Assembly (NCBI GenBank): GCA_964534765.1
Contig: CAZHRJ010000001.1
Coordinates: 762-64,761 of the forward strand
From: an uncultured bacterium
GTDB lineage: Bacteria > Lindowbacteria > 2-12-FULL-62-27
Reading direction: 5' to 3'
Length of the DNA: 64,000 nucleotides
The notes below the pieces were generated by a model. It saw only the letters and a list, made by a program, of their open reading frames with translations, was not told where the DNA came from and did no database searches. This document shows positions 8,200-22,694 of this stretch, one piece after another (within the stretch, counting starts at the first letter, position 1; the number at the start of each line of letters is the position of its first letter). The position numbers were made by a program, and so were the translations under genes.

Positions 8200-9270
8200 T
8201 CAGGCCGAGGTCAGGGATCGCGCGAACGACGCGGACGAGATCAGGAGGATATTGGCCATGTGGCAGGCCCAGGACGCGCCCGTTTCGACGCCGACCGCCA
8301 CAGCCGCGTCAAAGACCAGCCGGTGGACAAACCCGATCAGGATGGCCAGACAGATCGCCCGGGCCACGTTGAACCGCAGCATTCTCATCCCGAACCACGC
8401 GCCGAGCAGAACGCCGATCGCCGGCGCGAACGCCGTGGCGATCCGGCTGTGAATTTCCTGCCGGGCGAGAAAACTTCTCGCCGAAATCAGCTCCCGGGCC
8501 GACATCCATTGAACCTGATTTTTCCGGTGCGCCACTTCAAACAAAAATTTCTCCGGCGGCGGTAAGGTCAGCGGATAATCCAGGCTGTCAAACGGCTGAT
8601 ATTTCAACACCTGACCGGTCGGCGGATCGATTCTCCGGTAAAATCCCGATTCCAGGAACCAACGGGTTCCCCGTTTGACCATCCGGCCGGCCTGGTAGAG
8701 TTCGGAGACGTTGGATCCGGAGAAAACGAGGATTTTGACCGATTCGATCTGATTTCGCGGCGTGCCGGGCAATCCGCCACCGGACTGGAGGGCCGCCTGA
8801 GTCAGCCGGACATAAAACGGTTCCGACATGGGATCGACCTGGCGGCCGGATTTGATCACGGATTTCAGGACATCCGCCTGCCGGTGCAATTCCGGCAGCC
8901 AGTCAAGCTGGCTGTGGAACACGAAGGCCAGAATCAATGTTGCCAGCCACAGGACGGGATAAAGAAGTTTGCGGTCGTGACATCCGGCCGACCGCATGGC
9001 GGTCAGTTCCAGCCGGCGGGAAAACTCGCCCATCGTAAACAGACCCGCCAGCACCAGCATCACCATCAACAGCTCGATCATGCGGGGAACACATCCCAGG
9101 ACCAGATACTCGAACAAATTCCCGACTGAGACATTCTGCTTCACAACATCGTCCAAAATGTCGAAAAGATTAATCAGGGAAGCGATTACACAACAAGTCA
9201 TTACAACAAAAAGAGTCGCCGCGACCGAGCGGCGGAAAATGTATCGGTACAGGATTTGCATATTTAGCAT
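8200..9270 (-). CDS. LptF/LptG-family (YjgP/YjgQ) permease
   Basis: 356 aa. Hydrophobic helices cluster at both ends around a central soluble (periplasmic-type) domain, which is the LptF/G layout. Confidence 0.65.
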   Translation of the reverse strand: MLNMQILYRYIFRRSVAATLFVVMTCCVIASLINLFDILDDVVKQNVSVGNLFEYLVLGCVPRMIELLMVMLVLAGLFTMGEFSRRLELTAMRSAGCHDRKLLYPVLWLATLILAFVFHSQLDWLPELHRQADVLKSVIKSGRQVDPMSEPFYVRLTQAALQSGGGLPGTPRNQIESVKILVFSGSNVSELYQAGRMVKRGTRWFLESGFYRRIDPPTGQVLKYQPFDSLDYPLTLPPPEKFLFEVAHRKNQVQWMSARELISARSFLARQEIHSRIATAFAPAIGVLLGAWFGMRMLRFNVARAICLAILIGFVHRLVFDAAVAVGVETGASWACHMANILLISSASFARSLTSA

Positions 9271-9347
9271 ATTACCGAAAGCAAAAGTGGCGTCGGCGCT
9301 CTTTGTCTTTGCGCTTCATCGCCGCTAAGTATAGCTTTGGGGTAAAG

Positions 9348-12300
9348 ATGAGGGCAAGGCGAAAGACCTTTTTGGCGATGGTCATGGCGCTGGCGGGGTT
9401 GGTGGTATCAACCCTGGCCGATGCCGCGCTGGCGGATCCGACCGCAATCACGCAGGATCTACTGGCCAAGGGGCTCTGGTCGGCCGGCCGAAAGGCCGAA
9501 CTGGAGGGGGAGTTTGGTCTGGCCGCTATGAATTACTTTCGTGCATATCATTTATACGACCATCTTTTTCGGGAAATGGAAACGGCGGAGGAAAAAGATA
9601 CCTGGAGCGAAAAAAAGATTCAGGCCTATTCCGACGGCCTGTCGGCCATCCGGCAGTACGAGCGTCTCCGTGGCGTCCGCGTGGACGTCAAGCAACTCCT
9701 TGACCTCACCAAACCACGGCTCATCACTCCGCCCAAACCTACCCTTAAGGACAAGCTTCCCCCCGTCACCCTCGCCGCTCGGCCGCTGCCGGTCGACGTC
9801 ACCGCGCCGCCGGAAGAAGAGGGCAAACAGGACAGACTGTTTGGGATTGAAAAGAGGGTGCAGATGCCGTTTGGAGGAGAGGGCAGGTCGGAATTGATTG
9901 TCCGCGGCAGGAAGTTTATCGGCTGGACCGCGTCATCGACACGGTTCAAAAAGTCGAGCGAGCTCCGAAAAAACACCAAGGACGTCAAGGTCGATCAGCA
10001 GCTGCAGATTCAGATTTCCGGAGACGTGGCGTTCCAGTTTCAGGAAGCCCTCACTGTCAACGTCCGGTTCGACGACGCCGAGCAGGACCAGAACCAGAAA
10101 CAGGCGATATCGATCAAGTTCGATCCCAAGAAAGACATCAACACGCCCCTGGGCGTCATGCGGCCCATCGCCGAATTCGGAGACGTGAATCTCAAGCTCG
10201 AGGGCACGTCCTACGCGGCCTACAACAAAAGCCTGTTCGGCCTGACCGCGGCCCTCACGTTCGACCGGTTTCACATTTTCAACCTGTTTCGGGCTGAAAA
10301 ATTCAGCACGAATTTCGTCGCGACCCAGACCAAAGGCATCAGCGCCCATAAGGAATTTACCGGCCAGAACACCCTGACCGTGAGCGACATTCCCGACATC
10401 ACCTACATCCCCCGGGTCTACTATGACGTCCTGGCCGAAAAATCGGATGCGCAGAAATCGAGCCTGTTGCCGATCAAAGTCGGGTCCGAGCAGATTTTCC
10501 GGGACGACAGGAACAGCTTCAACAACACGGCAAACACGCTCACCAACAAAACCGTCACCAACCAGGGCGCGTCCTTCAAGGGCGATTTCGACGCGCTCGT
10601 CTCCGGCCAGGACTATTTCATCGACTATCAACTCGGCATCATCCAGTTTAAATCCGCCGCCGCCGGAAACGCCGTTCTGGCGGTGTCCCTCACCACCGCG
10701 GACGGCGTGTCGATCACGGACAAGATGATCAAGGACGAGAACACGACGGACACATTCAAGAGCTACGAGTTGAAGAACCGCTATTCTCTGGGATCGACCA
10801 ACATCATCCGGAACGATCCGGATTTTATCATCCAGATCCGGGACCTGAACGGCAAATCGTTTTTTGACGCCGATTCCAATAACGTCCAGGATCCGGCCGC
10901 GGAAAAATCCTATAACGAAATTTTCGGGCTCGACGCCCAGCCCCTGGACGGCCGGACGGACGAGAAAAACATCGATTTCGATTTCGGAATTTTACGCTTC
11001 CCCGACAGCACGCCCTTTATCACCGAAAATACGGCCTTCGCCGGCCGGTCGAACGTCGAAATCTATTCGATCAGTTTTCCGACGACGAAATACAAAATCC
11101 ACGTCGAATTCGTGCAGAAGACGAACATCTATCTTCTGAATCCCGGCATCGTCAAAGGCAGCGAAATCATTTATGTCGACGGCGTTAAACTCTCCCGCGA
11201 CCAGGACTACTTCATCGATTACACGTCCGGGTTCCTCCAGTTTCTCAGGCCGGAACTCATCACCACCAAGAGCCTCATTGTGGTCGATTATGAGTATTTT
11301 CCGTTCACGAGCAAATCGAATCAGACGCTGATCGGGACCAGTCTAAAAATGACCGTGTCTCCGAACGTCTCCTGGGCGGCCACGTTCGTCTCCAATTTCG
11401 ACGACAAACCCAACGAGCGGCCGAAGGTCAATGAAGAGCCGAAAAAAGTCGAAATATCCGATTTCCTGATCAATGTGAATCCCCTGGGAATGGTGCGGGA
11501 GGGCCTGGGCAATTTCACCAAGAAACCGATCGCGTTCCTCAACCCCTTTAACCTGAGCTTCTCGTTCGAAAACGCGTCGAGCCGGTTCAATTACAACACG
11601 CACGGCGAGGCGATCCTGTCGGATTTCGAGGATGCCGGACTGATTACCCAATTGGGCAGCAGCCAGAACCAGTGGCGGCCGGAAATCCCGGATGGATTCG
11701 ACACCGGCGGCCGGGGCGACTACACGATCACACAGATTGCCGGCGTCGGGCACCTGGACAATCAGGCGAACGTCAACGCCGAGGATCTGAGAGACCAGGC
11801 GTCCCTGAAAGTCGGCTACACCTTCGCCACGACCGGGCAGGCCGACACCTATGTCTCCCTGTCGTTCCACATTTCGGACGTCACCCAGGATCTGTCGAAA
11901 CGGACGTTTCTTGAATTCTGGGTGAATGACGCCAACAATCCGGACGTCACGCTGGACATGGGGATTTTGAACGAGGATGGGGACAACGACGGTCTCCTGG
12001 ACTCCGAAGACGGCAACAAGGACAACCTGCTCAATTCCGGCGAGGATGCCGGAATCGACCTGGGGTTGACCAACCGCATCGGGACCGGCAACGGCATACT
12101 CGATTCGGAAGACCGGGACAAGGATGGGACGCTGGATGTGGACCAGGCCTTTTTCCGCGCGGTCCTGAGCGATTCGGCCGTGGTGGAAACCAAGACGTTT
12201 GACAACGGGTGGAAACGGTACCAGGTGTTTCTCAACACGCTCGTCGAGAACACTCAATACAGCAATCAAAAGGCCGACCTGAAAGCGATCAAGGACCTGC

Positions 12301-14726
12301 GTCTGACGTTCAGCAAGCCGGCCGGCAGTTCGGCGACGAGCGGGTCGCTGCTGATCAACGACATCTCCATCCAGGGAGTGAGCTGGGAGGACGACAATTT
12401 CAAAGACACGAAAACATTCACCGTCGGAGTGGTTTCCAGCAGGACCGATCCGTCGTTTACTCCTCCACCCGAAATCGTCGGCAACATCCCGACGCTGGAC
12501 GCCAAGGCCCTGGCGCTGTCCTACTCCTCCATGAAGGGTCAGCATGTCACGCAGTTTCTTCCCGCCGCCGACATCCGGCTGTCGCTCTACAAAAAACTCA
12601 ATTTCTGGGTCAAACCCGCGGACGCGACGAATTTCGGCGACACCTTCGTATTTCGATTCGGCCCCGACGCCGGAAATTTCTTCGAAAAGTCGGTTCTGCT
12701 GACGACGACCGATTGGACGGCCATCTCGATCAATCTCGAGGAAATCGAGGAGACCTTGATCAAACTCAACATCGATACCAGCCCGCCTTTCAACAAGACC
12801 ACCGGCGGCATCCGTTATTCCGGAGGCCCAACCCTTGACCGGATCCGGTATCTGGGCGCCGGGGTCGTATCCAATGGGATCGCCACCAATACCCGGATCT
12901 ACTTGGACGAGGTCACGGTCAAGGAGGTGGAAGAGGAGCGGGGCCGGGCGAACCGGTCGGCTTTTTCATCCTCGATGTTTTCCAATCTCATCACCCTGAA
13001 CGGCAACCGGGAGATCACCGACAACACCTTCCGGCCGATCGGCCGGATCAACTACACCGGCACCGGAGATTATGTGCCTGAGGACCGCCGTACGGAGGAC
13101 TATTCGGGGACATTGAATTTTTCGCGGTTCACGTTTTTGGACCGGCTGCTCAAATTGAGCATACCGGTGTCGTTTTCGAACAAGAAGGCCAAGACATTCA
13201 TCAATCCCGATCTGGTTGAGAACGTGAAGCGATCCGACCTGGGCGACAAAACATCAGACGGGAAATCGCTCGGATTCAGCGTCTCCCGGAACTCCTACTG
13301 GCCGTCCTTCGGCGCTAGCTGGAGCAAGCAGGAGGATAACGTCAATCAGAAACTGTTCAAATCCAAACAGGAAAACACCTCAAAATCCTACTCGACAAAT
13401 TACGGATACACCGTCAACAAAAAAATCCTATGGATCATCCCCATCGGCAACACGTTCGCGTTCAATACCAACTACTCGCGCAGCATCTCGACCAATGACC
13501 GCGACATCCTGCTCGGGTCGGAACGGAACAGCTATCAGAAATCCCAGAGTGACGGCGTCGGATTCAATATCCATTACACCATCACCCGGTGGTTTGACTG
13601 GACCATCGCCATCAACCAGTCCCTGTCCCGGCAAACCCAGTCCGAAACTCAGCCGCTCAAGAAAAACGGCCGCAGCCGGTCGTACTCATGGGGATGGCCG
13701 TTCCCTCCCTTTGCCGGATTCTCGCCGAATCTGAACTGGAGCCTGAACTATTCCGAAGGGTTCAACAACGAAAGCGAGCTGAAGAATATCGGATCATCCG
13801 GGAGTTTCGGCGCCAGCCTCGGCCTCCAGCCCCATGAGTGGTGGAAGCGGCTCAAATTTCTAACCATTTCCTACGCCTATAACATCTCGGGAAGCGCCAG
13901 TTATCAGAACGTTCCGGACCAGTTCGGGTTGAGCGCGGTCTTTGACGATTTTTATCGAAACATCCTTTTTTTCTGGAAAGGCGGCAGTCTCGAAGTGCTG
14001 TCCGACACGCTTGTTCTTGCGCGCAATTCCGCGAATGTCTCGCGGGGGCATTCCATCGGCGGCGGGATCAGCATCTGGAAGAGTCTGTCCACCAACTACA
14101 GCACGGCGTTCAACCGGAATGAGGTCCAGAGTTTGAACTCGATCGACGTCTCCGACGCGTTCAGTTTCAACCTCAATAACAACCTCGATCTCAGAACCGC
14201 CAGCAGACTCTTTCGCGGCGTCAACTCCGCATCGATCAGTTACACCTATGGATTCAGCTCATCCGCCAACAAGACCACCGAAAACAAGAACATCTCCAAC
14301 GGACTGACCTGGTCAATGGGCTGGACGGACCGGATGAGAACGAGCATGGGATACACGTTCGGATTTAACGCCGTAAAGGACCGGCTGTCGATCAGCAAGG
14401 GACAAGGCCAAACGGGCAATTTTTCGATGTCCTATCTGCTCAGCAATCCATTCAAGATGACAACCTTTACCGGAAACCTGCTTCGATTCCAAAACCGGCT
14501 GGAACTCCTCAACGCATTTAACTGGAGCAACACCAAAAACCAGATCGACGGTGTCAAAAAAACCGACAACATGACCTACGGCGGCAACGTCGGCATCAAC
14601 TACGATCTCCGCGAAAACTTCCGCATCGCCGCCGGCGGGACCTACACGGTCACCAGCAACGAGATCACCCCGGATGACGACAAAAGCGTGACCGCTCTGA
14701 ACGCGACGGCGGAACTACGGTTTTAG
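9348..14726 (+). CDS. giant outer-membrane protein, possibly SprA-like, with TSP3-type Ca-binding repeats
   Basis: ORF 9303..14726. The ATG at 9348 is preferred: GGGG is 6 nt upstream and it gives a classic signal peptide MRARRKTFLAMVMALAGLVVSTLADA. The C-terminal ~700 aa are S/N/T/G/Y-rich with an alternating pattern and end in ...TAELRF, the aromatic terminal residue typical of BAM substrates. Confidence 0.7.
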   Translation: MRARRKTFLAMVMALAGLVVSTLADAALADPTAITQDLLAKGLWSAGRKAELEGEFGLAAMNYFRAYHLYDHLFREMETAEEKDTWSEKKIQAYSDGLSAIRQYERLRGVRVDVKQLLDLTKPRLITPPKPTLKDKLPPVTLAARPLPVDVTAPPEEEGKQDRLFGIEKRVQMPFGGEGRSELIVRGRKFIGWTASSTRFKKSSELRKNTKDVKVDQQLQIQISGDVAFQFQEALTVNVRFDDAEQDQNQKQAISIKFDPKKDINTPLGVMRPIAEFGDVNLKLEGTSYAAYNKSLFGLTAALTFDRFHIFNLFRAEKFSTNFVATQTKGISAHKEFTGQNTLTVSDIPDITYIPRVYYDVLAEKSDAQKSSLLPIKVGSEQIFRDDRNSFNNTANTLTNKTVTNQGASFKGDFDALVSGQDYFIDYQLGIIQFKSAAAGNAVLAVSLTTADGVSITDKMIKDENTTDTFKSYELKNRYSLGSTNIIRNDPDFIIQIRDLNGKSFFDADSNNVQDPAAEKSYNEIFGLDAQPLDGRTDEKNIDFDFGILRFPDSTPFITENTAFAGRSNVEIYSISFPTTKYKIHVEFVQKTNIYLLNPGIVKGSEIIYVDGVKLSRDQDYFIDYTSGFLQFLRPELITTKSLIVVDYEYFPFTSKSNQTLIGTSLKMTVSPNVSWAATFVSNFDDKPNERPKVNEEPKKVEISDFLINVNPLGMVREGLGNFTKKPIAFLNPFNLSFSFENASSRFNYNTHGEAILSDFEDAGLITQLGSSQNQWRPEIPDGFDTGGRGDYTITQIAGVGHLDNQANVNAEDLRDQASLKVGYTFATTGQADTYVSLSFHISDVTQDLSKRTFLEFWVNDANNPDVTLDMGILNEDGDNDGLLDSEDGNKDNLLNSGEDAGIDLGLTNRIGTGNGILDSEDRDKDGTLDVDQAFFRAVLSDSAVVETKTFDNGWKRYQVFLNTLVENTQYSNQKADLKAIKDLRLTFSKPAGSSATSGSLLINDISIQGVSWEDDNFKDTKTFTVGVVSSRTDPSFTPPPEIVGNIPTLDAKALALSYSSMKGQHVTQFLPAADIRLSLYKKLNFWVKPADATNFGDTFVFRFGPDAGNFFEKSVLLTTTDWTAISINLEEIEETLIKLNIDTSPPFNKTTGGIRYSGGPTLDRIRYLGAGVVSNGIATNTRIYLDEVTVKEVEEERGRANRSAFSSSMFSNLITLNGNREITDNTFRPIGRINYTGTGDYVPEDRRTEDYSGTLNFSRFTFLDRLLKLSIPVSFSNKKAKTFINPDLVENVKRSDLGDKTSDGKSLGFSVSRNSYWPSFGASWSKQEDNVNQKLFKSKQENTSKSYSTNYGYTVNKKILWIIPIGNTFAFNTNYSRSISTNDRDILLGSERNSYQKSQSDGVGFNIHYTITRWFDWTIAINQSLSRQTQSETQPLKKNGRSRSYSWGWPFPPFAGFSPNLNWSLNYSEGFNNESELKNIGSSGSFGASLGLQPHEWWKRLKFLTISYAYNISGSASYQNVPDQFGLSAVFDDFYRNILFFWKGGSLEVLSDTLVLARNSANVSRGHSIGGGISIWKSLSTNYSTAFNRNEVQSLNSIDVSDAFSFNLNNNLDLRTASRLFRGVNSASISYTYGFSSSANKTTENKNISNGLTWSMGWTDRMRTSMGYTFGFNAVKDRLSISKGQGQTGNFSMSYLLSNPFKMTTFTGNLLRFQNRLELLNAFNWSNTKNQIDGVKKTDNMTYGGNVGINYDLRENFRIAAGGTYTVTSNEITPDDDKSVTALNATAELRF

Positions 14727-15446
14727 AAGAACCAGACCGAATGCGCTGTACCGGCACTGAGGCACGCCGTAAAAGGAGGCCAGTCGAACCAGATACTCAT
14801 CCCAGTTCCCGACGTCGAATCTCAACGGCTCGATCGGACTTAGACCTGACCACTCAACGATCCTATGGATGTCCGACGGCGTAAAGACATCCGCTTTGCC
14901 GGGTGTCGGGCGGTCCACATAGTCCACGGTCAGAATCAGCCGGCCACCGGGTTTGAGAGCACGGGATAAACACCGGACCGCCTTCTCCTGCTCGGCGGCC
15001 GGCTGGAGATGCTCCAGGACAGACATCGAACATACTCGGTCAAACGATTCGGCCGGCCAGGACAACGCCTGCATCGGCTCGATGTGATAATCAATGTCGA
15101 CGCCGAAGAACCGCGCATTTTTTCGAAGACGGGAAGTCAAATCGGGCGCGGTCGCCAGATGGAGCCTATGAAGGAACCGGTGGAGTCTGAGAAATTTTTT
15201 GGAACGAAATCCGTCGATATCGCACGCCGAGACGCGGCATCCCAGTCGGGCCAGATAATACTGAAACACCCCGCGGCCGCTGCCGGCGTCCAGAACGGTC
15301 TGGCCCGGCCGGAAATCGCCCTGCATCACAGCCCAGGGATATTCGAGATGCTTGCCGCCCTCGATTTCCGCGCGACGCATCCGGCCGTGGCCCATCCGGC
15401 AATGCCGGCCCAGCGGATGCGCATCGACCCCCATCATCCCATGCAT
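14715..15446 (-). CDS. class I SAM-dependent methyltransferase
   Basis: 243 aa. Motif I VLDAGSGRGVFQYYLARLG, acidic loop SACDID, post-II LKPGGRLILTV. Confidence 0.75.
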   Translation of the reverse strand: MHGMMGVDAHPLGRHCRMGHGRMRRAEIEGGKHLEYPWAVMQGDFRPGQTVLDAGSGRGVFQYYLARLGCRVSACDIDGFRSKKFLRLHRFLHRLHLATAPDLTSRLRKNARFFGVDIDYHIEPMQALSWPAESFDRVCSMSVLEHLQPAAEQEKAVRCLSRALKPGGRLILTVDYVDRPTPGKADVFTPSDIHRIVEWSGLSPIEPLRFDVGNWDEYLVRLASFYGVPQCRYSAFGLVLLKP

Positions 15447-19906: not shown

Positions 19907-20869
19907 ATGAAAATTGTCGTCACCGGCGGCGGCGGATTCCTGGGCAGCGCGCTCGTTAGGAATCTCGCCGGCGCGCCTATGGCGGTCGTGAGCATCGATC
20001 ATGGGCGGGCTTACGACGTTCTCAAACAGAGCATGCCCTCCGGCGTCACCTGGGTAACCGGCGACATCGACGACCGGGAAGTTGTCCGGCGAAGTCTGGT
20101 TGGCGCCGATGTCCTGGTCCATCTGGCCGGGGTGTCCGGGGAACGGCGCTGCACGGCCGATCCGCTGAAATCGATCATGTCCAACGTGTATGGGACCCAT
20201 GTTCTGGTGGAGGCGGCCCGGGCGGCAAAGGTGCGGCAGATCCTATTTGCCTCCTCCTACTGGGTCTATTCCACGTATCTGGAGAGACCCATGCCGCTTT
20301 CCGAGTTGGATGACTTGAAAACCGACAGCGTCTACGGGGCGCAGAAGGCCGCGGCTGAAAGAATCATCCAGTCATCCGGCATTGCATCCGTCAGTTTCAG
20401 AATCACCGCCCTCTACGGGTTTGGGACAGGCTCCGGATCACAGTGGGAAAATCTGATCGGAAAATTCTTGATATCGGCTTTTTCCGGAAATCCTCTGACC
20501 CTTTACGGCGATGGCCGTCAGCAGATTGATTTCGTCTACGTCGAGGATGTCGTACGGGCCATGGCGCATGTCATCCGGAATCCGGAACCGGCCCATCGCG
20601 TGTTCAACGCCGGCGGCGGCAGGCCGGTACGGGTATCGGAGGCGGCCGAGTGTTTTCAGAAAATCTACCAGGAGAGGCAGGGCAAACCGCTGGAAATTCG
20701 CCGGGAGCCGGCGCCGCCGGGAAAAGTCTGGCCGGACAAATGGCTGGCAATCGATACGATCAGAAAATCCGTACCCGGATTTCCTTTCTCAACGCTTGCG
20801 CAGGGACTTACGGAAACCATCATACAGTATGAACAGCAGTTGGCGACGCCTCGGCAGGCAAAAATATGA
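19907..20869 (+). CDS. NAD-dependent epimerase/dehydratase (extended SDR)
   Basis: 320 aa. N-terminal VTGGGGFLGSAL and catalytic YGAQK. Confidence 0.8.
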   Translation: MKIVVTGGGGFLGSALVRNLAGAPMAVVSIDHGRAYDVLKQSMPSGVTWVTGDIDDREVVRRSLVGADVLVHLAGVSGERRCTADPLKSIMSNVYGTHVLVEAARAAKVRQILFASSYWVYSTYLERPMPLSELDDLKTDSVYGAQKAAAERIIQSSGIASVSFRITALYGFGTGSGSQWENLIGKFLISAFSGNPLTLYGDGRQQIDFVYVEDVVRAMAHVIRNPEPAHRVFNAGGGRPVRVSEAAECFQKIYQERQGKPLEIRREPAPPGKVWPDKWLAIDTIRKSVPGFPFSTLAQGLTETIIQYEQQLATPRQAKI

Positions 20870-22017
20870 CGGCCGGGAAAATTCCCTCCACTCAGCCCTA
20901 TTTCAGCTCCCGACAGCGGCGATTGATCCTGAGGTCGACGCTAGACATTCTCCGCACCGGCCGGCTGATTCTTGGACCCTACACGGAAAAGCTGGAGCGC
21001 GGGTTCGGCGGCTATATCGGATCGCCCTACGCCGTCGCCGTCAGTTCCTGCACCGCGGCGATGGAAATCGTTCTCCGCTGGATCGGCGTCGCCGGACGGG
21101 AGGTCATCGTGCCGACCAACACGTTTGTCGCGTCGGTCAACGCCGTGATCTTCGCGGGCGGCCGGCCGGTTCTGGCCGACATCGATGCGGATTCGCTGTG
21201 CCTGAGCCTGCGGGATACGGAACGAAAGATCAGCCGCGAAACGAAAGCGGTCATTTTGGTGCACATCGCGGGAATCGTTCATCCCCGGGTCGAATCGTTT
21301 CGGGACCTGTGCCGGCGGAGAAAGATTTTCCTGATCGAGGATGTCGCCCACGCCACGGGCGCGTCGATCGGCGCGAAGAGCGCAAAGAAGGCGGGCGGTT
21401 TTGGCGATGCCGGATGTTTTTCGTTCTACCCGACGAAAGTCATGACCACGGGCGCGGGCGGAATGATCACCACGCGCCACCGGGATCTGGCGGAATTCGC
21501 GGTCAGCCTGAGACACCACGGCGCCGGTCGAAGAGGAGGGTTGACCGACGTCCAGCGCCTCGGCAACGACTGGCTGATGGACGAATTCCGCGCGGGCGTA
21601 GGGCTGGCTCAGCTGGCGGATATCGAGTCGATGATCGCGGCCAGACGGCGCCTCGCCAAATCCTATTCCCAAGCCATCCGGGGGATGGCGGCCGTCAAAG
21701 CCATGGAGCCGCCGAAACACATCCGGCACGTGTATTACAAATATCCGGTCGTGACGCCCGATCCTCAGATCCGGCGGCGGCTCGTGGATACGTTGAAATC
21801 CCACTATGGAATCGACACCGGCTCCATTTATCTTCCGCCCGTCCATCGTCAGCCCTACCACGCCCGCGCGCTGGGTCTTCGGCCCGAGAACTTTCCGGAG
21901 GCCGAGGACATTCTTCCCCGTATCCTGTGTCTTCCCGTATATCCGCAGATGACGCAAAAAGATCAGAAGCGGGTGTTGGGCGCCCTGCGGGAAGTTTTGA
22001 GCCGGCTGAGACGATGA
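20866..22017 (+). CDS. DegT/DnrJ/EryC1/StrS-family sugar aminotransferase
   Basis: 383 aa. FSFYPTKVMTTGAGG carries the PLP-lysine block typical of the family. 4-bp overlaps at both ends. Confidence 0.85.
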   Translation: MTAGKIPSTQPYFSSRQRRLILRSTLDILRTGRLILGPYTEKLERGFGGYIGSPYAVAVSSCTAAMEIVLRWIGVAGREVIVPTNTFVASVNAVIFAGGRPVLADIDADSLCLSLRDTERKISRETKAVILVHIAGIVHPRVESFRDLCRRRKIFLIEDVAHATGASIGAKSAKKAGGFGDAGCFSFYPTKVMTTGAGGMITTRHRDLAEFAVSLRHHGAGRRGGLTDVQRLGNDWLMDEFRAGVGLAQLADIESMIAARRRLAKSYSQAIRGMAAVKAMEPPKHIRHVYYKYPVVTPDPQIRRRLVDTLKSHYGIDTGSIYLPPVHRQPYHARALGLRPENFPEAEDILPRILCLPVYPQMTQKDQKRVLGALREVLSRLRR

Positions 22018-22694
22018 GAGCCTGCATTCACCAGCCGAATTTTCTGCCGTATCTGGGGATTTTCAATAAAATCAAGCAGTCCGACATTTATGTCGTCTAT
22101 GACGTCGCCCAGTATGTCCGGGACCGGTTTGACAACCGAAACCAGATCAAAGGCCCGGCCGGACCGATCTGGCTGACCGTTCCGCTGCAGGTGAAAGACT
22201 CCTTTCTGAAGCGTTTTTTTGAGGTCAAACTTCCGGATGACCCGCACTGGAAAAAAAAGCACCTGCGAACCATTGAACACACTTATTCCCGGGCCGCGCA
22301 TTTCAAAACCTATTTTCCGCCGTTTGCGGGCATCTACGAGGGTCCGCACGCGACGCTGGCTGATATCAGCGTGGCCATCATAGAGTTTTTGCTGAAGGAA
22401 TTCCGGATCGGGACGCGGGTGGTGAGGACGACGGCGATGGATCTGGACAGTTCCCTGCAGTCCACAGAGATGATTGTTCAGATCCTGAAAAAACTGGGCG
22501 TGACCCGATACCTTGCCGGGGCGAGCGGAAAGAAATATATGGATATGGATCTGCTGGCGAAGGAAGGCATTCAGGTCGACTTTCAGCATTACGACCATCC
22601 GATCTACCGGCAGATGTATGGGGCCTTTGTGCCGAACCTGGCGGCCATTGATTTGTTGTTCAATGAAGGGGAAAATGCGGGGAATCTGATCTAG
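22014..22694 (+). CDS. WbqC-family protein
   Basis: C-terminal 226 codons of ORF 20511..22694. The ATG at 22014 overlaps the DegT stop (ATGA). MRACIHQPNFLPYLGIFNKI is the characteristic WbqC N-terminus. Confidence 0.7.
   Translation: MRACIHQPNFLPYLGIFNKIKQSDIYVVYDVAQYVRDRFDNRNQIKGPAGPIWLTVPLQVKDSFLKRFFEVKLPDDPHWKKKHLRTIEHTYSRAAHFKTYFPPFAGIYEGPHATLADISVAIIEFLLKEFRIGTRVVRTTAMDLDSSLQSTEMIVQILKKLGVTRYLAGASGKKYMDMDLLAKEGIQVDFQHYDHPIYRQMYGAFVPNLAAIDLLFNEGENAGNLI

Follow-up and report, generated by a model that had tools for sequence, protein, structure and literature searches.

A compact SprA-like protein encoded beside an lptG-like gene in Candidatus Lindowbacteria, with unannotated relatives across candidate phyla

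The stretch of DNA analysed here, referred to throughout as the window, comprises 64,000 nucleotides from an uncultured member of the Lindowbacteria (contig CAZHRJ010000001.1, positions 762 to 64,761 of the forward strand) and the gene in question lies at 9348-14726 on its plus strand, transcribed divergently from a gene for an LptF/LptG-family permease. An initial annotation of this DNA had likened the 1,792-amino acid (aa) product to SprA, the outer-membrane translocon of the T9SS (type IX secretion system). This has been borne out as distant homology, since the protein aligns collinearly with SprA over its full length and both structural models made of it strongly match SprA chains alone. 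By sequence comparison the window protein is a full-length, distant homologue within the SprA superfamily and as such a relative of the T9SS translocons. The gene and the regions of its product are as follows.

9348..14726, plus strand: SprA-like gene, 1,792 aa and stop codon (open reading frame and translation, orthologues, family profile against 6H3I chain A, hhalign)
9348..9434, plus strand: putative Sec-type signal peptide, about aa 1-29 (read from sequence; basic n-region, hydrophobic core, A-x-A)
9435..9872, plus strand: N-terminal extension, aa 30-175, outside the SprA-aligned core (proline content; the hhalign match begins at aa 186)
9891..10394, plus strand: first long-strand block, aa 182-349, six predicted strands of 10-19 residues and three shorter ones (DSSP of the AlphaFold N segment; aligns with SprA 144-330)
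10395..11321, plus strand: inserted domains with two DYFIDY..G motifs, putative cap (motif positions; the sole stretch matching TIGR04189 directly)
11322..11591, plus strand: middle block of four predicted long beta-strands, aa 659-748 (DSSP, both overlapping models)
11592..12890, plus strand: middle domains, aa 749-1181, acidic repeat and putative beta-sandwich modules (conserved residues; weak domain matches)
12891..14723, plus strand: C-terminal barrel block, aa 1182-1792, 26 predicted long beta-strands and a final Phe (AlphaFold C segment; hhalign match to the C-terminal portion of canonical SprA)

The open reading frame (ORF) spans 9303-14726 on the plus strand, with an ATG start at 9348 giving 1,792 aa and a stop codon. 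Judged by conservation this is a real gene and no chance ORF, because it has full-length orthologues, five of them sharing 62-67% identity with it over the full length. Two orthologues come from named genomes, both metagenome-assembled genomes (MAGs) of Candidatus Lindowbacteria, a phylum filed by NCBI taxonomy under 'Bacteria candidate phyla' and outside the Fibrobacteres-Chlorobi-Bacteroidetes (FCB) group. The N-terminus MRARRKTFLAMVMALAGLVVSTLADAALA looks like a Sec signal peptide and has equivalents in the orthologues, in agreement with the initial annotation, and is followed by what is probably a helical segment and then by the expected Pro-rich linker (11% proline in aa 101-200); the 'TPR-like' (tetratricopeptide repeat-like) label attached to this N-terminal segment was not confirmed, no Pfam family matching there. 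The motif DYFIDY..G, described as occurring twice, is present in exactly two copies at aa 422 (nucleotide 10611) and aa 620 (nucleotide 11205), with D620, Y621, D624, Y625 and G628 invariant or almost so in an alignment of 41 family sequences. In the same alignment G872, E876, E887, E899, D900 and G902 are invariant, lying within a D/E/N/G-rich acidic repeat at aa 870-933 (nucleotides 11955-12146) in the middle domains, for which there was also a weak choice-of-anchor-J match together with secondary Foldseek matches to carbohydrate-binding modules. The Ser/Asn/Thr/Gly/Tyr-rich C-terminal region exists as first described, and measures ~600 aa rather than ~700, the fraction of these residues climbing from 0.19-0.36 to 0.39-0.51 across aa 1201-1792. 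The protein ends as reported in AELRF, the terminal Phe being present also in 118 of 155 retrieved relatives. There is no cysteine in its 1,792 residues, self-BLAST revealed no internal tandem repeats and a Pfam scan returned no family at E of 1 or better.

The relationship to SprA was established by profile comparison. The NCBIfam SprA model TIGR04189, the search that the initial annotation had proposed as a check, gave a score that falls below the equivalog threshold (60 bits against a cutoff of 200, E=6.6e-17), with the direct match limited to aa 398-776 (profile positions 353-783 of 2319). Pfam PF14349 (SprA_N), which is carried by canonical SprA proteins and by the intermediate homologue P0156 described below, had no match in the window protein. 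Neither a profile of six close orthologues nor the DYFIDY region alone found a PDB match by sequence, the PDB being reached by sequence only with the 41-sequence family profile, positions 131-1480 of which aligned at E=4e-75 with residues 144-2080 of SprA from Flavobacterium johnsoniae (6H3I chain A). This alignment brings both DYFIDY..G copies onto the corresponding SprA motifs, and likewise QLQIQISG...VNVRFDD and DY-x-I-DY-x-x-G, the motifs on which the initial comparison with SprA had drawn, align to their SprA equivalents. Comparison by hhalign with nine canonical SprA proteins (Prob 100%, E=1.3e-75, 1,550 aligned columns) was collinear from aa 186 to aa 1792 of the window protein, through the terminal Phe, with residues 172-2384 of 2388 in canonical SprA, at an identity of ~16%. 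Five inserts of at least 25 aa, 257 aa in total, are found in canonical SprA only and are absent from the window protein, the remainder of the ~600-aa length gap being made up of many small deletions. The window protein lies outside the curated SprA equivalog, yet is clearly a member of the SprA superfamily.

Structure prediction in segments, likewise proposed at the outset together with a strand count, gave a concordant picture. Two overlapping 1,200-aa segments were modelled by AlphaFold with 48-sequence alignments, reaching a mean pLDDT (predicted local distance difference test) of 84.4 for aa 176-1375 (N segment) and 85.2 for aa 593-1792 (C segment), with secondary structure that was consistent between both models across the overlap. 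In Foldseek searches of the PDB the best four matches for both models were SprA chains (8GL6, 8GL8, 6H3I, 6H3J) with E values that range for the C segment from 1.5e-48 to 4e-35, where the next-best match is at 2.5e-05, and for the N segment from 1.3e-51 to 1.8e-36, where it is at 2.2e-08. Template modelling (TM) scores of the segment models against the SprA chains were 0.39-0.52. DSSP placed strands of at least 10 residues in three stretches, with six strands at aa 182-328, four at aa 659-748 and 26 at aa 1182-1792, a total of ~36 long strands as counted from the DSSP strings of the two segment models, and the SprA barrel is known to comprise 36 strands (PMC10994853). On these models the predicted fold of the window protein matches that of SprA.

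The window protein belongs to a large family that word-indexed protein searching strongly under-reports, such searches returning 5 relatives with the single protein and 16 with a diverse alignment. An exhaustive HMMER search with aa 176-1375 as the query, in which representatives stand for clusters at 50% identity, recovered 1,067 cluster representatives with the limit set at E=1e-3 and 315 with it set at 1e-30, mostly 1,600-2,100 aa long. The family scores under the curated SprA thresholds, and for this reason all source-named relatives that were looked up bear the label 'hypothetical protein'. The hosts of labelled relatives are Elusimicrobiota, Hydrogenedentota, Caldisericota, Lindowbacteria and unclassified MAGs, and this unannotated family spread across candidate phyla is new. 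In all, 93 loci with relatives (designated by L numbers) were collected, a metagenome scan with an 11-sequence alignment being one of the sources. At 50% identity the first 90 of these and the window fell into 35 lineages, with L091-L093 taken individually. Among the relatives, P0156 (2,040 aa, loci L007/L008) is an intermediate SprA homologue that resembles the window protein in being shorter than canonical SprA and in having divergent lptF/lptG genes immediately upstream of its gene; unlike the window protein it reaches the Pfam SprA_N threshold, and the two share only 22% identity.

The gene neighbourhood of the window protein is formed by the following features.

8200..9270, minus strand: LptF/LptG-family permease gene, nearest to LptG (PF03739, 136 bits; TIGR04408 LptG, 100.8 bits where the cutoff is 240)
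9271..9347, no strand: divergent intergenic region, 77 bp (coordinates)
14715..15446, minus strand: S-adenosylmethionine (SAM)-dependent methyltransferase gene, convergent (Pfam Methyltransf_11 and related families)

The initial annotation had described a 77-bp divergent control region shared with an LptF/G-family gene and had taken this adjacency as a hint of an outer-membrane role. Both the gene (PF03739) and the gap (9271-9347) were confirmed; the 77-bp region itself holds one weak sigma-70-like match on the minus strand, which does not amount to evidence of function. The linkage proved to be deeply conserved, with one or two lptF/lptG genes immediately upstream of the SprA-like gene in 16 of the 31 lineages that have enough upstream sequence, and downstream of it in one further lineage. 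LptF/LptG is by far the commonest neighbour, no other family being found in more than six lineages, and the linkage covers the full divergence range of the family, with an Elusimicrobiota MAG, a Hydrogenedentota MAG and the 2,040-aa Pfam-positive intermediate among the cases. The arrangement is divergent in the Hydrogenedentota and co-directional in Elusimicrobia HGW-1, where lptF, lptG and the sprA-like gene follow one another in operon-like order with a 41-bp gap; a six-frame search with hidden Markov models (HMMs) also revealed an LptF/G neighbour at L002. In the one flavobacterial genome checked, canonical sprA comes after ruvA and lacks an Lpt neighbour. No paper reporting lptF/lptG-SprA linkage was found in the literature, and the family-wide linkage is new. 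The Lindowbacteria loci have a single LptF/LptG-family gene beside the SprA-like gene and most other lineages an lptF-lptG pair, such that in Lindowbacteria the partner LptF/G permease must be encoded elsewhere.

At the 3′ end of the SprA-like gene the methyltransferase gene overlaps it by 12 nucleotides (14715-14726, longest-ORF call), and a methyltransferase gene, conserved among the Lindowbacteria loci, occupies the equivalent position in L001, L003 and L004. Besides housekeeping genes, the scanned ORFs of the window encode lipopolysaccharide (LPS) core, O-antigen and polysaccharide biosynthesis functions. A 727-aa ORF at 20511-22694 carries a WbqC-like domain confined to its C-terminal 220 aa and matches nothing in NCBIfam; its N-terminal ~500 aa would represent either an unannotated domain or an over-extension of the ORF in this GC-rich DNA.

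Hallmarks of the T9SS are found beside relatives of the window gene. A shared terminal domain of ~100 aa is carried by 23 neighbour proteins in 14 of the 35 lineages, in three of them by the gene directly downstream, and the cutoff of TIGR04183, the T9SS type A sorting domain, was passed by two of three such tails and by four of 10 full-length proteins. Among the carriers of this C-terminal sorting domain (CTD) are M6 metalloproteases, a protease of the subtilisin type and a beta-propeller protein. At L067 a full-length PorU sortase is encoded two genes upstream (606 bits against a cutoff of 420), and in the Elusimicrobiota locus L010 a gene for a PorV/PorQ-family protein (120 bits against 90) sits between that for a CTD-bearing M6 protease and the lptFG-SprA-like pair. 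In all, PorV/PorQ-like proteins are encoded near the SprA-like gene in about six lineages.

Several other genes recur beside the relatives. A ComF/GntX-like gene (double zinc ribbon and phosphoribosyltransferase) lies directly downstream on the same strand in five lineages (for example L040:15028-16035, L092:15217-16062 and L093:5275-5919) and is absent from the window. A Peptidase_M28-family gene is directly downstream in three lineages (for example L007:16172-17095 and L083:14594-15571). An M28-like fold is found in the glutaminyl cyclases acting on T9SS cargo, and the enzyme encoded by this neighbour might serve in cargo maturation. In two unrelated lineages (L005:4813-8308 and L007:18162-22228) the SprA-like gene is flanked by genes for ATPases and a platform protein of type II secretion or type IV pili (MshEN/T2SSE, T2SSF). 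Two lineages (L091:20223-26453 and L005:25428-25763) encode giant repeat proteins longer than 3,000 aa within 10 kb of the SprA-like gene, that of L091 carrying fn3 and alpha-amylase domains and that of L005 carrying Big_13 domains with a T9SS-like CTD at its end, followed by a PorV/PorQ-like gene. A gene-poor stretch at L093:12307-13547, on a contig labelled Caldisericota, holds two LAGLIDADG homing-endonuclease ORFs which may be intron-encoded.

Set against SprA/Sov (TIGR04189, PF14349; PDB 6H3I, 6H3J, 8GL6, 8GL8), the window protein is collinear all the way from the first strands of the barrel to the terminal Phe and has the same signature motifs. At E of 1e-35 or better its predicted fold has SprA chains as its only matches, DSSP gives ~36 long strands beside the 36 of the SprA barrel, and its relatives are encoded near PorU, PorV/PorQ-like proteins and cargo with a type A CTD. 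It differs in its length (1,792 aa against ~2,400), in its ~16% identity and scores below both curated thresholds, in its N-terminal extension, in the position of its gene beside lptF/lptG rather than after ruvA (the sprA position in one flavobacterial genome), in that no GldKLMN, SprE or PorV was seen near the gene, and in a host that NCBI taxonomy places in a candidate phylum outside the FCB group. LptD, the 26-strand outer-membrane LPS translocon, resembles the window protein as predicted in being a very large outer-membrane barrel, and both have a genomic association with Lpt genes; the window protein has no sequence homology to it, no OstA N-terminal jellyroll, no LptD/OstA match in either Pfam or NCBIfam, and a weak Foldseek match.

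The window protein, a compact and highly divergent member of the SprA/Sov superfamily, which has the 36-strand T9SS translocon as its founder, probably acts as a T9SS-like outer-membrane translocon for CTD proteins, a role proposed because its relatives occupy T9SS-like neighbourhoods. The protein would be exported by Sec and, because it ends in Phe, inserted into the outer membrane through BAM (beta-barrel assembly machinery). There it would form a giant capped barrel from the three strand blocks (aa 182-349, 659-748 and 1182-1792), the cap being built from the inserted DYFIDY and acidic-repeat domains. By analogy with what is found beside the relatives, folded proteins with a T9SS type A CTD would cross the outer membrane through the pore and be handed to PorV/PorQ-like shuttle proteins.

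A number of observations weigh against a T9SS-type translocon in this organism. In keeping with the initial annotation, which had found no gldK/L/M/N or porV-like genes, the scanned ORFs of the 64-kb window encode no T9SS component, no CTD of type A (TIGR04183) or type B (TIGR04131) and no PorV/PorQ-like protein, about a dozen small ORFs being unscanned; nor do the other Lindowbacteria loci encode a T9SS partner or CTD cargo (~130 kb of Lindowbacteria sequence), and GldK/L/M/N were not seen near any relative. Both curated family thresholds (TIGR04189 and PF14349) are failed and the protein is ~600 aa shorter than canonical SprA. The frequency of CTDs near SprA-like genes stands without a genome-wide background for comparison, and a closed, capped barrel with a lateral opening goes beyond what the two segment models show. 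The host lies outside the reported range, the T9SS having been described as confined to Bacteroidota or the FCB superphylum (PMC7463736, PMC10994853, PMC12398890) and the nearest genomes to the window being Candidatus Lindowbacteria MAGs. Nothing relevant was found in the literature tying Lindowbacteria or Elusimicrobia to the T9SS or SprA. It is plausible that T9SS partners are encoded elsewhere in the Lindowbacteria genome because family members in other phyla adjoin PorV/PorQ-like, PorU and CTD-cargo genes.

The alternatives rank lower than the translocon because the protein has no Lpt domain, is collinear with SprA throughout and yields barrel-type models. It is improbable that its primary role lies in an LPS or outer-membrane-lipid pathway, as a SprA-derived, laterally open barrel working with LptB2FG and serving, for example, as an alternative or accessory LPS insertase or as an LPS-dependent anchoring site. 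LptF/LptG is the most recurrent neighbour (16 lineages, with six at most for others) in both divergent and operon-like arrangements, the window gene lies at the edge of an LPS core/O-antigen region (heptosyltransferase, HldE and RfbH genes) and canonical Bacteroidota sprA, in the one flavobacterial genome, is free of Lpt linkage, all of which such a role would accommodate. However, Pfam detects neither an OstA/LptD-type beta-jellyroll nor any other Lpt domain, the collinearity that runs through the whole protein is with a protein translocon, LptD appears merely at rank 46 in Foldseek (E=2e-3), the linkage is missing in about half of the lineages, and it is CTD cargo, PorV/PorQ-like proteins and PorU that co-localise in relatives. 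An LptD analogue was likewise ranked low, there being no OstA domain and collinearity with SprA throughout.

Slightly less probable still is a SprA-derived giant barrel that has been repurposed for the uptake of large solutes or polymers, as a surface-layer or appendage anchor or for polysaccharide export, with no T9SS partners in Lindowbacteria. Relatives with the same architecture at 27-33% identity occupy T9SS-like neighbourhoods and the family-specific cap motifs are conserved, which argues against repurposing, although the lack of a T9SS partner or cargo in the ~130 kb of Lindowbacteria sequence, the strong divergence (16% identity to canonical SprA) and shorter length, and the polysaccharide genes all around would fit it. 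That the protein is no barrel at all deserves next to no credence: its large size and S/T/N/G-rich composition might suggest an adhesin of the beta-helix or repeat type, or else an ORF that is spurious or decaying, but the models are high-confidence assemblies of long antiparallel strands that match SprA only, self-BLAST gives no internal tandem repeats, and six orthologues at 62-67% identity keep the ORF intact and the terminal Phe conserved. An adhesin, beta-helix or repeat protein was rejected on the same models, with their long antiparallel strands and strong match to SprA alone.

For a SprA-type translocon, the linkage to lptG, divergent in the window and conserved across phyla, suggests that it is co-expressed with LPS export. 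What the lptFG linkage means is speculative, co-regulation of the translocon with LPS export being the likeliest explanation, and such co-regulation would agree with the covalent LPS anchoring of type A cargo that has been described for Bacteroidota (PMC7463736, PMC12860637). It is also possible, though doubtful, that the compact SprA-type family, widespread beyond the FCB group, is mechanistically coupled to LptB2FG, with cargo anchored on newly exported LPS, or operates with no GldKLMN motor/ring. 'Orphan' T9SS sorting domains have been reported in phyla in which no Por structural genes were found, for example Poribacteria (PMC3909097), and a family coupled to LptB2FG or free of GldKLMN would, if real, also explain these.

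The T9SS translocon is described in the literature as the largest known single-chain outer-membrane barrel, and the family to which the window protein belongs keeps the whole SprA architecture despite its sub-threshold scores. If its members are working translocons, T9SS-type secretion extends well past its accepted range, the secretome predictions for many candidate phyla need revision and the family offers a natural 'minimal SprA', ~600 aa shorter, for studies of structure and function. As to how the export of cargo may be coordinated with the export of LPS, the conserved lptF/lptG linkage offers a testable lead.

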